Positions 1,761-55,716 of a DNA stretch of 64,000 bases are shown piece by piece. The DNA lies in contig CAUJCO010000007.1 in assembly GCA_963169645.1 (NCBI GenBank), forward strand, positions 162,737-226,736, in the 5' to 3' direction. The translations under genes and the position numbers were made by a program. The notes beneath the pieces are model-generated. The model had not been told where the DNA came from. It was given only the letters and a program-made list of their open reading frames with translations, and did not search any database. This DNA is from Bacteroidota bacterium. Lineage in GTDB: Bacteria > Bacteroidota > Bacteroidia > Chitinophagales > JADIYW01. The first letter of the stretch is position 1. The number at the start of each line of letters is the position of its first letter.

Positions 1761-1782
1761 CATTGTATCCATCGTATAAAAA

Positions 1783-1814
1783 AATGGCAGGTGTTTTCAT
1801 CTGCCATTTTTTTT
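1783..1814 (+). terminator. Rho-independent terminator after the tandem family genes
   Basis: Stem aatggcag (1783-1790) pairs with ctgccatt (1801-1808) around a 10-nt loop. A T-run follows to 1814. Confidence 0.7.
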
Positions 1815-1919
1815 GTAAAAATCATACTATTATCTTATAATTTGAGTTAAGAAAATTGCTATTTAAATGGTAATCTCAATGCAGATTAATGGGATTCCCT
1901 TTTTCAAGGGAATGACAGT

Positions 1920-1957
1920 GTAGGTGTTGGTCAGATGACTTACAGTCATCCGACCAA
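1920..1957 (+). repeat. REP-like element: GTAG head plus imperfect 14-bp-stem hairpin
   Basis: GTAGGTG, then TTGGTCAGATGACT-TAC-AGTCATCCGACCAA. There is one A/C mismatch in the stem. Confidence 0.8.
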
Positions 1958-2045
1958 TCTTCAAAAAAACTTTGTAGGCTTTGTGTATGTCTTTGTGGGC
2001 TTTGCGGTTAAAAAAGGAGATTCCCTTTCTCAAGGGAATGACAGT

Positions 2046-2083
2046 GTAAGTGTTGGTCAGATGACTTACAGTCATCCGACCAA
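2046..2083 (+). repeat. REP-like hairpin copy 2 (head variant GTAA)
   Basis: Same 14-bp stem and TAC loop as copy 1. Confidence 0.8.
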
Positions 2084-2143
2084 TCTTCAAAAAAACTTTG
2101 TAGGCTTTGTGTATGTCTTTGTGCGCTTTGCGGTTAATATTTT

Positions 2144-2177
2144 GAGTAGTGAGTAGTGAGTAGTGAGTAGTGAGTAG
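2144..2177. repeat. Heptamer microsatellite (GAGTAGT), about 5 copies
   Basis: Direct reading: gagtagtgagtagtgagtagtgagtagtgagtag. Confidence 0.9.
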
Positions 2178-2180
2178 CGT

Positions 2181-2244
2181 GTCATTCCCATGTAAATGGG
2201 AATCTCACGAACACAAATGGGATTCCCTCTTTCGAGGGAATGAC
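2181..2244. repeat. 64-bp double-hairpin element with GTCATTCCC/GGGAATGAC termini (MITE-like)
   Basis: GTCATTCCC-atgtaaat-GGGAATC...GGATTCCC-tctttcga-GGGAATGAC. Near-identical elements lie at 13374-13437 and 13533-13597. Confidence 0.8.
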
Positions 2245-2329
2245 ATTAAAAAACATTGTGGGCTTTGTGTATGTCTTTGTGCACTTTGCGGTTAAAAAAG
2301 GAGATTCCCTTTTTCAAGGAAATGACAGT

Positions 2330-2367
2330 GTAGGTGTTGGTCAGATGACTTACAGTCATCCGACCAA
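2330..2367 (+). repeat. REP-like hairpin copy 3
   Basis: GTAGGTGTTGGTCAGATGACTTACAGTCATCCGACCAA. Confidence 0.8.
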
Positions 2368-2458
2368 TCTTCAAAAAAACTTTGTGTGCTTTGTGTATGT
2401 CTTTGTGCACTTTGCGGTTAAAAAAGGAGATTCCATTTTTCAAGGGAATGACATTGCA

Positions 2459-2570
2459 ACATTATTTCATTACTATATTACTTCATTATTTCATTACTTC
2501 ATTACTTCATTATTTCATTATTTCATTACTTCATTATTTCATTACTTCATTATTTCATTATTTCATTATC
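2459..2570. repeat. Octamer tandem array (TTCATTAY), about 13 copies
   Basis: Direct reading: ttcattat/ttcattac alternate. The array produces the spurious ITSLFHYF-type ORFs. Confidence 0.9.
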
Positions 2571-2606
2571 TTACTTTTGAAGCCAAAAGTAACAAAAGCT
2601 TTTTTT
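2571..2606 (+). repeat. Conserved hairpin plus T-run that closes the octamer array
   Basis: ttacttttg-aagc-caaaagtaa, then caaaagcttttttt. The same module follows the array at 13309-13345. Confidence 0.7.
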
Positions 2607-2831
2607 GAACTACAAGGCAATTTGATGTTTCGTTCCTCACATCAACCGCTTCTAAAATCAACGCAAATGCGTATTGCCTTCCCTTCGTTGATTTTAAAGC
2701 TATTGCTGTGTATTTCAAAAAATCGAACTCTTCTGCGGCATTTTTTTTATATTTAAGTAGTGAGTAGTAGGTATTGAGAGATGATATTTTTTTGTAATAG
2801 ATGAGATTTTCTACTTTTATGGAATGACAGC

Positions 2832-2869
2832 GTAGGTGTTGGTCAGATGACTTACAGTCATCCGACCAA
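2832..2869 (+). repeat. REP-like hairpin copy 4
   Basis: GTAGGTGTTGGTCAGATGACTTACAGTCATCCGACCAA. Confidence 0.8.
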
Positions 2870-2956
2870 TTTTCAAAAAAACTTTGTAGGCTTTGTGTAT
2901 GTCTTTGTGGGTTTTGCGAAAAAAAAGGAGATTCCATTTTTCAAGGGAATGACAGC

Positions 2957-2994
2957 GTAGGTGTTGGTCAGATGACTTACAGTCATCCGACCAA
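2957..2994 (+). repeat. REP-like hairpin copy 5
   Basis: GTAGGTGTTGGTCAGATGACTTACAGTCATCCGACCAA. Confidence 0.8.
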
Positions 2995-3080
2995 TCTTCA
3001 AAAAAACTTTGTGCACTTTGCGTAAAGTCTTTGTGCACTTTGCGGTTAAAAAAGAAGATTCCCTTTTTCAAGGGAATGAC

Positions 3081-3247
3081 AGTAATATATTATTTCATTA
3101 CTACATTACTACATTATTTCATTATTTCATTATTTCATTATTTCATTACTTCATTACTTCATTATTTCATTATTTCATTACTTCATTATTTCATTACTTC
3201 ATTACTTCATTATTTCATTACTACATTATTTCATTACTACATTATCT
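3081..3247. repeat. Octamer tandem array (TTCATTAY with CTACATTA variants), about 20 copies
   Basis: Direct reading. The array runs up to the stop codon of the convergent protease gene. Confidence 0.9.
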
Positions 3248-3254
3248 TCAAAGA

Positions 3255-4733
3255 CTATTGTTTTATCATTTTACCAAAAGAGGTAAAGTCTTCATTGTAG
3301 ATTTTAATAAAATAAACACCACTTGAAAATGTGCTTGAATTGATTTCAACTATTGAAGCTTGTTTGGTAATAGTTTGTTGTAAGATATTTTTTCCGTTTA
3401 TATCATAAACACTCAGTTGTGCATCTTTAGCAAACGGTTGATTTATTTGTATCGCAAAATTGGCTTTAGTTGGATTAGGATATACTTGAATTCCTTTTTC
3501 ATCTAAGGTTGAGTAGTGAATAAACGTTGTAGTATTTTCTTCTACTTCTCTTTTAGATACAATTCCGCTTCTTCTAGTCAGCAAATTATAACGCATTAAA
3601 TTAACTTGTTGCTTAGTGAATAAATTATAACATTGATCGGTAGAGTAATCCATATAGTTTTCAAACATATCCGGCCAATCTCTACCTAAATAATTTTTGG
3701 TGCAGGTATTGATAGTCGTATCACAAGGATTGGTTGTACCTCTAACTAAGTTATTGGCAAAAGCTTGTTCTTCTTCCGGCGTATCATCAATAAAATCATC
3801 TATTTCACAACCATTGTCAAAACCTGGAATAGGTAATACATTTCCCCAAGCGTGTTGTAATCCTAAATAATGTCCCACTTCGTGTACAGTAGTTCTGCCT
3901 TTTGTATAAAAATCTCTGAACCGTTGTGAAGTAGAATCTTGTGCATACCAATTATTTTGGCCAAAGAATCTGAAATCGATTACAACACCATCATTTTTAC
4001 CATGATCTAATGCAAGTGGTCCCCAATTTATTGCATTGGATGGTGGATAAGCGTAACCACCTAAAGCACCGCACGTATCGCATAAGGTTAAACAGCTATT
4101 GCATTTGCGATTACCATAATTCAAATCACACACGTAAATATTTAAATATTTACTGGCAGGCCAAGGCGATTTTCCTTTAGAGCCTGTTAATAAAAAGAAA
4201 TCTTCTTTTAAAGGTTCCACACCCAAAGCCGTCCACAGTACATTGCTAATTGGATCCCAACCGCCAAGGCTACCTAAGCTTCCATTTGTTCTCGTAATTC
4301 CGGTAGTGGCAGCACCATTCGGTGCTTTTTTTGCCAACTCAAATCGGATTTTTGCATTACCTCTAAATGGAATAAAAAATGGTCTTATATTTATACTATC
4401 CGGATTTAATAAATTAAAATCTCGGTTTAGTGCATCTATCTGCGATTGTATCACATTATCCGGCACATTCTCGTATTTATTATTATTTAGATATACAACA
4501 TGAACCACTACTTGTATAGTGTAAGTAGTGTCTGTATTAGCAAGTGTCGTGTCGTATGCAACATTATTTTCTATTCCATTTCCAATACCAATTCGATAAG
4601 CGTCAGAAATATGCGTATTGTTTTGGAATGCTTGTGCGTTGATGAGATCCATAGCGCAACGATTCACGAATTCTTGTGCGGTAACACGCAAAAATATCCA
4701 ACTAAATAATAAAAATAAAATACGCTTTTTCAT
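3255..4733 (-). CDS. Secreted zinc metalloprotease, M43 (pappalysin/cytophagalysin-like), with T9SS C-terminal sorting domain
   Basis: Signal peptide RVTA|Q. Extended zinc motif HEVGHYLGLQH (HExxHxxGxxH). C-terminal VYPNPTKANFAIQ...SVYDINGKNIL...GVYFIKIYN. Confidence 0.85.
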   Translation of the reverse strand: MKKRILFLLFSWIFLRVTAQEFVNRCAMDLINAQAFQNNTHISDAYRIGIGNGIENNVAYDTTLANTDTTYTIQVVVHVVYLNNNKYENVPDNVIQSQIDALNRDFNLLNPDSINIRPFFIPFRGNAKIRFELAKKAPNGAATTGITRTNGSLGSLGGWDPISNVLWTALGVEPLKEDFFLLTGSKGKSPWPASKYLNIYVCDLNYGNRKCNSCLTLCDTCGALGGYAYPPSNAINWGPLALDHGKNDGVVIDFRFFGQNNWYAQDSTSQRFRDFYTKGRTTVHEVGHYLGLQHAWGNVLPIPGFDNGCEIDDFIDDTPEEEQAFANNLVRGTTNPCDTTINTCTKNYLGRDWPDMFENYMDYSTDQCYNLFTKQQVNLMRYNLLTRRSGIVSKREVEENTTTFIHYSTLDEKGIQVYPNPTKANFAIQINQPFAKDAQLSVYDINGKNILQQTITKQASIVEINSSTFSSGVYFIKIYNEDFTSFGKMIKQ

Positions 4734-5627: not shown

Positions 5628-5682
5628 AAACAACAACTTTAATTTCATATTGGAAATTACAAATTAGTTGTAATATTGTAGT

Positions 5683-5858
5683 GCAAATTGGTTTTCGGTT
5701 TCATATCCGAGATTAAAAGGGAAACAAGTGAAAGTCTTGTACAATCCCAGTTGCTGTAAGCACACCACCATAGTGGTACTGAAGGCTACAACCACTGATT
5801 TGATACATCAAATCGGGAAGGTTTCAGTTAAGTGTAAGTCAGAAGACCTGCCAATTTC
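5683..5858 (+). promoter_or_regulatory. Cobalamin (B12) riboswitch
   Basis: Conserved core AAAAGGGAAacaaGTGAAAgTC...CCCagtTGCTGTAAG, CCACTG...GGGAAGG, and B12 box AGTCAGAAGACCTGCC at 5837-5852. P1 pairs aaattgg (5685-5691) with ccaattt (5851-5857). A near-consensus -7 box TAATATTG lies at 5671-5678. Confidence 0.85.
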
Positions 5859-5897
5859 ATTGAACTAAAAAATGTTCTGAGGAAACATTGGAAGTAT

Positions 5898-7856
5898 ATG
5901 AGAAAAATTGGTCCACATATTTTGCTTTTTTTGCTGCTTGCTACTCTTGCAAGTAAAGGGTATAGTATTGCTTTAGATTCTTTACAGCAATTAGATACCG
6001 TTTGGATTGTTGCCGATAAACAATCTAATTCTTTATTGTTGGATAAATTATATAGTGTTCGCTCCAATGATGCAACGATTGGAATCTTACAACAAGACGC
6101 CGGAAAAATGTTGCAGTTTTTGTTTCCGATTCAAATCAATAGTTATGGCTTGGGAAATATTTCTACGATATCAGTACGCGGCACAAATGATGATCATAAT
6201 TCGGTGTATTGGAATGGATTAAAAGTAAACTCTATGACATTAGGCAGTACGGATATCTCATTAATTCCGGCGATGTTAGATGGTAATGATGTCATTAATT
6301 TACAGAAAAATACCCATGCTATTGGTGGTGCTTTAAATTGGCAAAATATTCCGGATTGGAGGAATAACGTAAAATTCAAATGGCGAAGTGATTTTAATAG
6401 TTTTGCATCGTTTCAAAATTCCTTTCAATTGCGTGTAGGTAACCAACGTGTGCAATGGCATTCAGCAGCATATTATCAAACCGCAAAAAATAATTTTCCT
6501 TATGTAGATGTTTATCGATTTAATAATCCGATAGACACGATGGAACATAATCAATTAAAAGCTGGTGGTGTGTTGAATAGCTTGTTTTTTAAAATGAAAA
6601 AACAACAAACATTTTCTATTCACAATTGGTATAATGAAAAGCACAAAGAAGTACCATCTATCATGGGAACAAATGAAATTAGTGGAAGGAACCAAAAAGA
6701 TAAATCCATTAAAACAGTTGCTAAATACACCAAAATTTTTTCGGATAACGAATTGCAAATTTCAGTTGCTCACACCTATGATTATTTGAAATATACGGAT
6801 AAGCGTTTGCCAACAGATACCTTTTTATTTATCAATTCATCGTATAAAACACATCGACTCGTACATACTTTGTCTTATTCCGATTCTTTAAAACATCAGC
6901 TACATATACAAACAGGATATACCTATGAAATGGATTTAGCGAATGTAAAAGAATATACAAAAACAATTACGGAACACATAGGTGAAGTTTATGGTCAATT
7001 AAGTTGGCACTTAAATGATTTTAATGCAGCATTTAAGTTGTCGCAACCTTTTACTTCGTATCGGTACATTCGGCCGCAGTTTGTAATTGATTGGCAATAT
7101 ACACCAAAACAAAAATGGTACACTTTGGCATTGCATTATGCCGACAAATATCATTTTCCGGATATGAATGACCGTTATTGGAGTCCGGGTGGAAATCCGG
7201 ATTTAATTCCTGAAACAGCATGGTCGTTGGCACTTGAAAACAAGATTAATGTATTAAAACATCGAGACAAATTTTTGCATAATTTGAATTGTAATGTAGA
7301 TGTATATTATACCAAAATAAAAAACAACATTGTTTGGTCGCCAATTAACAGTGTGTTATGGTCACCCAAAAATATCAAAGTTACACAAACGTATGGCAGT
7401 GATTTGGTGTTGAATTATACACTTTCAGAGCAACGTAGATTTCAATTTAATTTGAAAACAATATACAGCTTTAATAAATCAACGATTGTTGAAGATGTGA
7501 ATAACGAAGAATTGAAAGGGAAATATCTTCGATATAAACCAATGCATACATTTAAAAGTAATTTTTATATAGAGCAACAATATTTTGGGTTAGGATTGAA
7601 TTATATGTTTCAGTCGTTGCGATTTACGGATGAAGAAAATTTTGATTTTTTTGCATTAAAACCTTATCATATTCTTGATGCCTTCATCACGTTTAAAGGC
7701 AATATAAAACAACAACACGATGTACAAATTATTTTTAAAATAAATAACATAACCAATGTTGCATATCAATCTATTCGTTCGTATGCACAACCACTACGCA
7801 ATTATTCTATTTCCTTAATTTATAATTTTTCAAAATCTCAAAATTCAGTACAATGA
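5898..7856 (+). CDS. btuB: TonB-dependent outer-membrane receptor, cobalamin-type (BtuB-like)
   Basis: Signal peptide and plug motifs (ISVRGTNDDHNSVYWNGLKVNS), then a long beta-barrel region. It lies immediately downstream of the B12 riboswitch. Confidence 0.75.
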   Translation: MRKIGPHILLFLLLATLASKGYSIALDSLQQLDTVWIVADKQSNSLLLDKLYSVRSNDATIGILQQDAGKMLQFLFPIQINSYGLGNISTISVRGTNDDHNSVYWNGLKVNSMTLGSTDISLIPAMLDGNDVINLQKNTHAIGGALNWQNIPDWRNNVKFKWRSDFNSFASFQNSFQLRVGNQRVQWHSAAYYQTAKNNFPYVDVYRFNNPIDTMEHNQLKAGGVLNSLFFKMKKQQTFSIHNWYNEKHKEVPSIMGTNEISGRNQKDKSIKTVAKYTKIFSDNELQISVAHTYDYLKYTDKRLPTDTFLFINSSYKTHRLVHTLSYSDSLKHQLHIQTGYTYEMDLANVKEYTKTITEHIGEVYGQLSWHLNDFNAAFKLSQPFTSYRYIRPQFVIDWQYTPKQKWYTLALHYADKYHFPDMNDRYWSPGGNPDLIPETAWSLALENKINVLKHRDKFLHNLNCNVDVYYTKIKNNIVWSPINSVLWSPKNIKVTQTYGSDLVLNYTLSEQRRFQFNLKTIYSFNKSTIVEDVNNEELKGKYLRYKPMHTFKSNFYIEQQYFGLGLNYMFQSLRFTDEENFDFFALKPYHILDAFITFKGNIKQQHDVQIIFKINNITNVAYQSIRSYAQPLRNYSISLIYNFSKSQNSVQ

Positions 7857-13144: not shown

Positions 13145-13600
13145 TAGAGTAGAGAGTAGAGAGATTTGAGATTTAACGCTTCATTATTTCATTGCTTCAT
13201 TATTTCATTACTTCATTATTTCATTACTTCATTATTTCATTATTTCATTATTTCATTATTTCATTACTTCATTATTTCATTATTTCATTATTTCATTATT
13301 TCATTATCTTACTTTTGAAGACAAAAGTAACAAAAGCTATTTTTAGATGTAAGTAGTATGTAGTATGCAGCGTGTCATTCCCATGCAAATGGGAATCTCA
13401 TCGTACTCATTGAGATTCCCGCTTTCGCAGGAATGACCGCGTAGGTGTTGGTCAGATGACTTACAGTCATCCGACCAAATATCAAAAATGCTTTGTGCAC
13501 TTTGCGGTTTAAAATATAACCGTATGCAGCATGTCATTCCCATGCAAATGGGAATCTCATCGTACACAAATAAGATTCCCGCTTTTACGGGAATGACGGT
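13145..13600. repeat. Second composite repeat field
   Basis: The same modules as 1891-3250 occur in the same orientation. They are AGAGTAG repeats, a TTCATTAY array (13179-13307), hairpin ttacttttg-aaga-caaaagtaa (13309-13330), double-hairpin elements (13374-13437 and 13533-13597), and a GTAG hairpin (13441-13478). Confidence 0.9.
13441..13478 (+). repeat. REP-like hairpin copy 6
   Basis: GTAGGTGTTGGTCAGATGACTTACAGTCATCCGACCAA. Confidence 0.8.
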
Positions 13601-15340: not shown

Positions 15341-15453
15341 GGAGATTTCCACTTTTGTGGAATGACAGCGTAGGTGTTGGTCAGATGACTTACTGTCATC
15401 CGACCAATTTTCAAAAATACTTTGTGCACTTTGCTGTTAAAAAAAAGAATCCC
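15341..15453 (+). repeat. Solitary ~113-bp repeat unit including REP-like hairpin copy 7 (15370-15407)
   Basis: ggagatttccacttttgtggaatgacagcGTAGGTGTTGGTCAGATGACTTACTGTCATCCGACCAAttttcaaaaatactttgtgcactttgctgttaaaaaaaa. Confidence 0.85.
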
Positions 15454-55397: not shown

Positions 55398-55424
55398 TAT
55401 ATAAAAGATGATTTTTAAAAAAGA

Positions 55425-55520
55425 AGGCAAGTTACTTACAGCGCACCGCTCAACCAACTACCTTTGCTGCCTTCCGACCCTGGAGGATTCGCCAGGAGCT
55501 GGTCGTATAAGACTTGCCCG
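55425..55520 (-). ncRNA. ffs: Small SRP RNA (4.5S-type)
   Basis: GC-rich island. The minus strand reads ...CCTCCAGGGTCGGAAGGCAGCAAAGGTAG..., matching the conserved domain IV motif (CAGGxCxGGAAGGAAGCAGC). The terminal helix pairs ggcaagt with acttgcc. A -7 box TATATTTG lies at 55524-55531 (minus strand) and a T-run follows the 3' end. Confidence 0.85.
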
Positions 55521-55716
55521 ACACAAATATACAACATAATTCTTGCTTCTAAATTAAAAATAAGGTTAATTATAGGAAATAACATTTTATTTATTGGCAT
55601 ATAGATATGTATGTTGTTGCACATTAGAAATATTAGTAAATCATTACGTTTTTTAAATAATTTTTATGCTTACTATATTAGATATTTTACATTAAAATGT
55701 GTTGTATTTTTGGTAT

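Follow-up and report, generated by a model that had tools for sequence, protein, structure and literature searches.

The repeat locus

The DNA analysed here, referred to as the window, is a stretch of 64,000 nucleotides (C7:162737-226736) in a draft assembly (G000) of 2.7 Mb with 14 contigs, a G+C content of about 33.5%, and a marker completeness of 100%. Near the start of the window, flanked by a terminator-ended fibre-like gene and by the 3' end of a - strand gene for an M43 peptidase with a T9SS-CTD, positions 1891-3075 form a mosaic to which at least five repeat families contribute. The features of this main locus and of the further sites in the window are listed below.

1893-1916, + strand: hairpin A, GATTCCCnn-TTNC-nnGGGAATGAC, which precedes every hairpin B
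2019, 2221, 2303, 2429, 2930, 3057, 13414, 13574, 15344 (starts), + strand: other copies of hairpin A
2181, 13374, 13533 (starts), - strand: copies of hairpin A
1920-1957, + strand: hairpin B copy 1, GTAGGTG followed by a 31-nt imperfect palindrome
2046-2083, + strand: hairpin B copy 2, with the 5' tag variant GTAA
2330-2367, + strand: hairpin B copy 3
2832-2869, + strand: hairpin B copy 4, behind a hairpin A of the A* subtype, within a block of about 560 nt common to C14:196.4k and C14:215.7k
2957-2994, + strand: hairpin B copy 5
13441-13478, + strand: hairpin B copy 6, in an A-B-C unit 3' of a phosphoglucomutase-family gene
15370-15407, + strand: hairpin B copy 7, with A->T at 15394, in a lone A-B-C unit behind a terminator
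1958-2018, + strand: module C, an A-run and CTTTG repeats of the CTTTGTGCACTTTGCGGTT type, 42 copies in G000 (alignment)
2084-2137, 2245-2302, 2368-2428, 2870-2929, 2995-3056, 13479-13512, 15408-15445: other copies of module C
2143-2177, + strand: 7-mer satellite (TGAGTAG)x5
2460-2569, + strand: 8-mer satellite CATTAYTT, with more arrays at 3089-3250 and 13180-13307
2570-2745, + strand: element X, a leading hairpin (2570-2593) and a multi-stem fold of about 150 nt
3058-3077, - strand: hairpin A with a GAAA loop followed by a T-run, terminator-like, 3' of the M43 peptidase/T9SS gene on the - strand (3255-4733)
2020-2039: second terminator-like hairpin A site

A protein-coding reading of the locus was rejected, as the ORFs over 1863-3326 pass through the repeats. 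At the gathering score, Rfam 15 gave only a cobalamin riboswitch and an SRP RNA in the window, both outside the repeat stretch, and nothing credible at E ≤ 5 in 1780-3300; without an Rfam match, a known RNA family was discarded as the identity of the repeats. Inspection by eye also led us to reject a Bacteroidota promoter (-33 TTTG / -7 TAnnTTTG) in module C or before element X; the leading hairpin of X contains TACTTTTG in G000 and CACTTTTTG in most other species.

Copies of hairpin B in the genome

Hairpin B is a 31-nt imperfect palindrome, TTGGTCAGATGACT-TAC-AGTCATCCGACCAA, and its seven copies in the window start at 1927, 2053, 2337, 2839, 2964, 13448, and 15377, all on the + strand. Six of them are exact, and the seventh differs by the A->T exchange at 15394, where the 3' arm begins. 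One A.C mismatch is present in all seven, and GTAG (GTAA in copy 2) begins 7 nt 5' of every palindrome. According to 100 shuffles, no copy is expected by chance. A previous sequence-only reading of the window had reported the seven + strand copies, their common mismatch and the one extra change in copy 7, all of which we confirmed; its coordinates mark the GTAG starts 7 nt before the palindromes.

The genome-wide count which that reading had proposed yielded 11 copies, seven on C7 and four on C14, one of the latter on the - strand. Exact-pattern, mismatch-tolerant, and profile searches agreed on this number; further diverged copies were rejected, since the profile search returned the same 11 only. 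The copies are spread over six loci, all of them are intergenic, and there is no inverted doublet among them. Contigs C4 and C10 terminate in the mosaic, and B copies, perhaps even a gene, could be missing from the assembly. Both B-bearing contigs show a weakly negative GC skew. The better-folding strand of 10 of the 11 copies would thus be the lagging-strand template, as one would expect of Y1 elements, the skew being weak and the copies non-independent.

The A-B-C unit and the repeat mosaic

Every one of the 11 B copies in G000 sits within a composite unit of A hairpin, B hairpin, and CTTTG repeats (A-B-C). The junctions of this unit are homologous in all 11 cases, with GACAG[C/T]GTAGGTG on the 5' side of B and T[C/T]TTCAAAAA on the 3' side, and the A hairpin ahead of B belongs to several subtypes. 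The sequence-only reading had passed over this larger unit and the mosaic structure of 1891-3075. Units consisting of A and C without B are also present in G000.

Hairpin A itself was found in 64 copies with a loose pattern and in 49 copies in the exact frame, in both orientations. Its two inner pairs covary, and the loop of the opposite strand is GNAA. The possibility that A is the REP of a Y1 gene was rejected, as the A motif lies beside none of about 45 Y1 loci. Within the mosaic, hairpin A sits at module boundaries.

In the whole genome, the mosaic has about 20 loci, and a recurrent order, A-[B]-C-A-8mer-G-X-7mer followed by A-[B]-C, was seen in 23 clusters. The main locus of the window harbors five of the seven window copies of B within 1.2 kb and contains a 126-nt tandem repeat with 97% identity. 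The block of about 560 nt that includes copy 4 is common to three loci with at least 95% identity, and both of its ends lie in C modules. A link of the mosaic to one gene family was rejected, since the flanking genes are mostly unrelated and occur in any orientation.

This organization resembles that of the BIMEs of E. coli and the BOX elements of S. pneumoniae, which also consist of short intergenic modules in a preferred order and a variable number. As in BIMEs, REP-type hairpins occur among the modules, two REP-type families (B and the REP of the gene RAYT-2 described below) being nested at different loci. The mosaic differs from BIME and BOX in that its modules are unrelated to theirs in sequence and in that it includes 7-mer and 8-mer microsatellites and the structured element X of 190 nt. 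In contrast to BIME and BOX, a binding protein (IHF, gyrase) is not known for the mosaic.

The hairpin B family in other genomes

In a public species collection, the exact B stem was found in G000 and only two other genomes, both MAGs of Chitinophagales/Saprospirales. Within the genus, five of 33 genomes contain the core TCAGAYGACT-N3-5-AGTCRTCCGA, and within the order eight of 401, belonging to three families and carrying 1-10 copies each; a reversed control pattern had no match. The family retains a 14-bp stem through compensatory change. Four outer stem pairs, which were unconstrained by the search, covary (GC/UA/AU/CG), as the Y-R pair inside the stem also does. In the stem alignment as a whole, 97.4% of the cells pair, 27 cells are changed on both sides, and none of 500 shuffles attained the observed score. 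REPIN-like inverted doublets of B, 6-19 nt apart, are present in two of the genomes, G003 and G047.

When both positions of the mismatch were left free, 24 of 25 B hairpins showed A.C, one showed A.A, and none showed a Watson-Crick pair. On the complementary strand, the A.C mismatch becomes a G.T or G.U wobble, and the - strand folds more stably both as DNA (-12.7 versus -10.3 kcal/mol) and as RNA (-20.9 versus -18.2 kcal/mol). Judged from this alignment, the A.C mismatch is a selected feature that goes beyond mere common descent, because it is kept in eight genomes of three families while other stem positions covary. The mismatch had been taken in the sequence-only reading as evidence for descent from a master copy, an argument that is too weak in view of this conservation.

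The GTAG tag behaves differently from the stem. It is present in 10 of the 11 copies in G000 (GTAA in the other), 3 nt from the stem foot, and in G047 the tag is GTAG or ATAG at the same distance. In three of seven copies pooled from G112, G383, and G253 it overlaps the stem, and it is absent from all B copies of G003, including those adjacent to a Y1 gene. GTAG is thus conserved only in the A-B-C lineage, i.e., in G000 and partly in G047. In PMC6006769 and PMC3733652, the criterion for REPs was a conserved GTAG or GT[AG]G tag separated from the stem foot by 0-2 nt on its 5' side, a range outside which hairpin B falls. The proposal that GTAG marks B as a REP is at odds with the 3-nt distance from the foot and with the absence of the tag in G003.

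Y1 transposase genes and their relation to hairpin B

As previously stated from the sequence, no RAYT or other Y1 transposase ORF is located within the 64-kb window. One such gene, RAYT-1 (C7:227125-227673), begins 389 nt past the window end, and a second gene, RAYT-2, is located at C13:202154-202714. With 94.3 and 80.8 bits, respectively, both exceed the NCBIfam REP_Tyr_transpos cut-off of 80 bits. RAYT-1 is flanked by inverted hairpins that occur nowhere else in G000; these also contain an A.C mismatch and have AGTCATCC in common with B. Multiple copies of another hairpin, GGTT[CT]GTG-N4-CAC[GA]AACC, flank RAYT-2; G000 has about 60 of them at about 15 loci, often as doublets. At C6:8198-8435 such doublets are nested in the mosaic, in like manner to B at other mosaic loci. 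Hairpin B is present beside neither of the two genes, contrary to the expectation that Y1 genes flanked by inverted B copies would be found. Y1 homologues thus exist in G000, and B is limited to six loci; the sequence-only reading had tied the fate of its REP/RAYT interpretation to these two points.

A Y1 gene directly adjacent to the exact B core was detected in one genome only, G003. It encodes a protein of 190 amino acids with the motifs NHFH and YIHQNP, is single-copy in G003, and is 25% identical to both RAYT-1 and RAYT-2. At this locus (L030), B-family hairpins are located at 1326-1348 and 1968-1990 on the same strand, so that the gene is bracketed by GGTCAGACGACT-CCA-AGTCGTCCGAAC and GTTCAGACGACT-CCA-AGTCGTCAGAAC, each followed by the common 3' tail CACTTGTTT. 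The sole NCBIfam match of the protein is NF047646 (REP_Tyr_transpos), whose cut-off of 80 bits it misses with a score of 62.6, and there is no match to the class 1 IS200 TnpA model NF033573. G000 lacks an orthologue of this gene, the distant RAYT-1 and RAYT-2 being its only homologues there. G003 has one more Y1 gene, only distantly related to the first, 2.2 kb from a B doublet.

Other homologues of the G003 gene within the genus have different flanks. Hairpins of the form GAYGACT-N3-AGTCRTC occur within the gene or at its ends in seven of 80 metagenomic homologues (35-55% identity), compared to less than one of 80 expected by chance according to our own estimate. The homologue in G112, which is 52% identical to the G003 protein, is flanked by 97-nt direct repeats containing AGTCATCCGATGACT. 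Apart from the distant Y1 gene 2.2 kb from a doublet in G003, Y1 genes were not found next to the dispersed B copies of other genomes.

The TnpA_Y1 subclass 2.6 of Bacteroidetes (Quentin et al., 2018), which equals RAYT group 5 (Bertels et al., 2017), comprises genes "flanked by atypical secondary structures", further copies of which are present at other genomic sites (PMC6006769). The G003 gene and its hairpins appear to fit this description, the assignment being made by motifs only. Common to both are a protein of about 190 amino acids with an NHxH HuH motif and YIHQNP, hairpin flanks, and a Bacteroidota host. The B family likewise has "atypical" flanking structures without a strict GTAG. 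The G003 locus differs from REP/RAYT systems in that its flanking hairpins are direct, as in IS200, rather than inverted, and in that the NCBIfam score of its protein does not reach the cut-off (62.6 versus 80 bits). Like IS200/IS605 elements and PATEs, it carries a subterminal hairpin at either end of the gene, both pointing the same way, shows insertion without an obvious target duplication, and has one strand with the more stable fold. It is unlike IS200/IS605 in that its protein does not belong to the class 1 TnpA of IS200, the gene is single-copy, and tnpB is absent.

Comparison with the sister species G047

The genome G047, which is about 88-90% identical to G000 in syntenic DNA, carries the A-B-C mosaic as G000 does, and three different searches detected no Y1 gene in it. 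Orthologous sites of the two genomes differ in their B content; one of them is A-C in G000 and A-B-C in G047. One unit is inverted between the genomes with respect to a flanking gene that both have. A further site contains two intact stand-alone doublets in G047 and only a decayed stand-alone B relic in G000.

The B sequence of G000 is identical at 31 of 31 positions to that of two G047 copies, and the flanking DNA is about 10-12% diverged. Because this identity persists despite the diverged flanks and G047 is without a Y1 gene, it gives a weak hint (roughly p = 0.04-0.15, own estimate) that B might be under selection independent of a transposase.

Element X

Element X has a length of about 190 nt and is present in 11 copies in G000 that are 94-100% identical. 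Its predicted fold comprises 38 pairs, 19 of which show compensatory changes, and 96.5% of the cells pair in an alignment of 21 copies from 13 genomes. None of 500 shuffles attained the observed values, and slid controls reached only 4-9 pairs. By BLAST, X was found in 21 of the 33 genomes of the genus. A covariance model detected it in G000, in all six other congeners sampled, and in one genome of another family; five genomes sampled from sister genera gave no match. Outside G000, the copies of X in other species are solitary and in unique contexts. It has no match in Rfam, and a coding function was rejected, as the sole plausible frame of 43 codons carries a 1-nt indel between X copies.

In kind, X resembles the structured intergenic repeats of 100-150 nt represented by ERIC, Correia (NEMIS), and RUP. 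Like them, it is multi-copy and intergenic, has about 150-190 nt, an end-to-end closing stem, and compensatory changes. It differs from these repeats in its unrelated sequence, in its branched fold with conserved unpaired loops, and in its near restriction to one genus. X is thus a well-supported structured element and a lead for RNA work.

Origin and maintenance of hairpin B

Our main reading, to which we assign a probability of roughly 0.55, is that hairpin B is a REP-type single-stranded DNA hairpin that persists in G000 as an orphan passenger of a BIME-like mosaic. B would be an orphan because its cognate transposase gene is missing from G000, and its spread is attributed to tandem and segmental copying of the unit because all copies have homologous junctions in one composite unit. 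With respect to the kind of hairpin, the earlier REP/RAYT interpretation is right: the selection on stem and mismatch, the bracketed Y1 gene of G003, and the metagenomic links speak for it. With respect to the present state in G000, which has no cognate gene, it is wrong.

According to the passenger reading, the B family would be the recognition element of one RAYT-like Y1 (HUH) lineage in Bacteroidota, belonging to class 2 and nearest to subclass 2.6 of Quentin et al. (2018). By analogy to TnpA_REP of E. coli and TnpA of IS608, the enzyme might bind the folded B strand, with the wobble or mismatch serving as a specificity mark, and would cut and rejoin DNA beside the hairpin. An ancestor common to G000 and G047 would have received one B copy on the 3' side of an A hairpin already in place. 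Later, B would have been copied passively with A-B-C by the 126-nt tandem duplication, by segmental copies of about 560 nt between mosaic loci, and by inversion. A single capture of B beside A before the split of the two species, followed by copying with the mosaic, is the simplest history.

Hairpin B shares with REP/REPIN-RAYT systems the short, dispersed, intergenic imperfect palindrome with a conserved irregularity, as well as the doublets in relatives. It differs from them in that a cognate gene was not found in G000 and in that, instead of tens to hundreds of copies with REPINs, there are 11 copies without doublets in G000, all in one composite unit. If B is indeed a passenger, a REP-type hairpin can outlast its transposase through capture by, and co-copying within, another repeat system. 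Such a capture would be a third outcome, distinct from active REP/RAYT pairs and from decaying relics; RAYT-2 with its own family of about 60 copies provides an internal control in G000. The invariant A.C/G.T, kept over three families, is a candidate recognition determinant for a poorly studied RAYT subclass of Bacteroidota.

An unlikely alternative is that B acts at the RNA level. The mosaic would be transcribed, mainly from the - strand of the window, and A and B would serve as 3'-end stabilizers, terminators, or protein-binding sites under selection in the host RNA. This would agree with the perfect G.U-containing stem of B on the - strand, with the GNAA (GNRA-type) tetraloops of A, and with the scoring of A plus U-run as a terminator just 3' of the - strand peptidase gene. 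The identity of B in G047, which is without Y1, and the strong structural covariation of the neighboring element X point in the same direction. However, the units occur in both orientations relative to genes, one being inverted between species at one site, the B family is patchy over three families at low copy number, as would be expected for mobile DNA, and Rfam gave no match.

Even less probable is an intact resident REP/RAYT system in which B is still mobilized in trans by RAYT-1 or RAYT-2. Both proteins pass the REP_Tyr_transpos cut-off, RAYT-1 lies on the same contig as B only 389 nt beyond the window, its flanking hairpins have the A.C mismatch and AGTCATCC like B, and B occupies six loci with 10 of 11 copies in one orientation, on strands of equal, weak GC-skew sign. 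On the other hand, B flanks neither gene, the flanking hairpins of RAYT-1 are unique in the genome, and RAYT-2 owns a different REP family of about 60 hairpins with multiple copies flanking it. Moreover, the identical composite context of every B indicates that the unit was copied rather than the hairpin, and the mosaic of G047 keeps B without any Y1 gene.

A chance palindrome amplified locally by tandem or segmental duplication, without a recognition function, could account for the five of seven window copies in one 1.2-kb locus with 126-nt periodicity, for the near identity of the copies, and for their number of only 11 in G000, but it is very improbable and largely refuted by the covariation across genomes, as seven other genomes from three families contain the core with its mismatch, with compensatory exchanges in the stem, in inverted doublets, and adjacent to a Y1 gene.

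With respect to the mosaic as a whole, we tentatively consider, with the odds clearly against it, that its parts, most notably element X and hairpins A and B, are RNA or ssDNA elements of this Chitinophagales genus alone, transcribed and selected for their structure, and represent an undescribed class of structured repeats. Hairpin A could then provide recombination or inversion points, and the G.T wobble of B could be the specificity determinant of an uncharacterized Y1 lineage. Module C resembles both the 5' start and the 3' end of X and, as a speculation, might be an X with an internal deletion.

RAYT-like genes and their hairpins

The genome under study (G000) carries two RAYT-like Y1 genes, neither of which is flanked by hairpin B:

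C13:202154-202714, RAYT-2; its REP family occupies about 15 loci, e.g. C8:88480-88810, C12:199722-200070 and C13:178870-180420
C7:227125-227673 (locus L001 1426-1974), RAYT-1, 389 nt past the window end (REP_Tyr_transpos, 94.3 bits)

RAYT-2 and hairpins of the type GGTT[CT]GTG-N4-CAC[GA]AACC are a classical REP/RAYT pair. At least four copies lie upstream and at least five downstream of the gene, and about 60 are scattered over G000, frequently as doublets with a pitch of 30 nt. The stems show C/T-G/A covariation. The hairpins that flank RAYT-1 are inverted, read CACGAGNC...GNCTCGCG and contain an A.C mismatch; no other copy of them was found anywhere in G000. A tandem duplication of about 145 nt spans the 3′ end of RAYT-1 and the hairpins downstream of it.

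In a congener (G003), a Y1 transposase gene is bracketed by hairpins of the B family, and some metagenomic homologs of this gene contain a related perfect hairpin within the gene itself:

L139 position 1707, intragenic hairpin (gene match 1501-2091)
L161 position 1133, intragenic hairpin

This arrangement recalls a feature reported for subclass 2.4, 'REP inserted in tnpA_REP'.

Hairpin A and the A-B-C unit

Hairpin A forms, together with hairpin B and module C (CTTTG repeats), the A-B-C unit:

1893-1916, hairpin A, GATTCCCnn-TTNC-nnGGGAATGAC; 12 further copies in the window, also present genome-wide

It was found in 22 of the 45 genomes of the family, distributed over three genera, with the highest abundance in G000. 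Both inner base pairs covary (TT/AA, AC/GT, AT/AT, TC/GA, GC/GC and GT/AC), and on the opposite strand the loop reads GNAA. Inverted A-/A+ pairs with a spacing of about 41 nt are frequent. No Y1 genes flanked by hairpin A were found.

Comparison with the sister species G047 revealed an orthologous intergenic site (C14:196100-196480 in G000; C7, L015 1-420, in G047) at which the A-B-C unit has opposite orientations relative to the flanking gene. At C6:174121-174389, hairpin B is missing from the G000 unit but present in G047.

Element X

Element X is a further module of the same intergenic mosaic:

2570-2745, element X, about 190 nt, multi-stem structured; also on G000 contigs C4, C9, C10, C13 and C14 (L185-L218)
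G110 C1:210597-211377, 485588-487293 and 2532982-2533850 (L226), distant relatives (43-57 bits)

Eleven copies were counted in G000; since two contig ends (C4:1-536 and C10:1-839) fall within mosaic clusters, the assembly breaks at mosaic repeats, and the counts for A, C and X are therefore probably too low, possibly also that for B. BLAST detected element X in 21 of the 33 genomes of the genus, and its covariance model matched G000 and all six other sampled genomes of the genus. Compensatory changes occur at 19 of the 38 pairs of the fold, and the unpaired loops CAAATGCTGATTGCC and AACTCTTCTGCGG are conserved. No Rfam family corresponds to element X. In G110, which belongs to another family, the distant relatives form tandem clusters with a pitch of 0.6-0.8 kb, in DNA without convincing ORFs.

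Matches to known RNA families in the window

5672-5869 (+), cobalamin riboswitch (98 bits), upstream of the ORF at 5898-7856
55421-55526 (-), small SRP RNA match

For the SRP RNA, the Bacteroidales model scores best, although the host belongs to the Chitinophagales.
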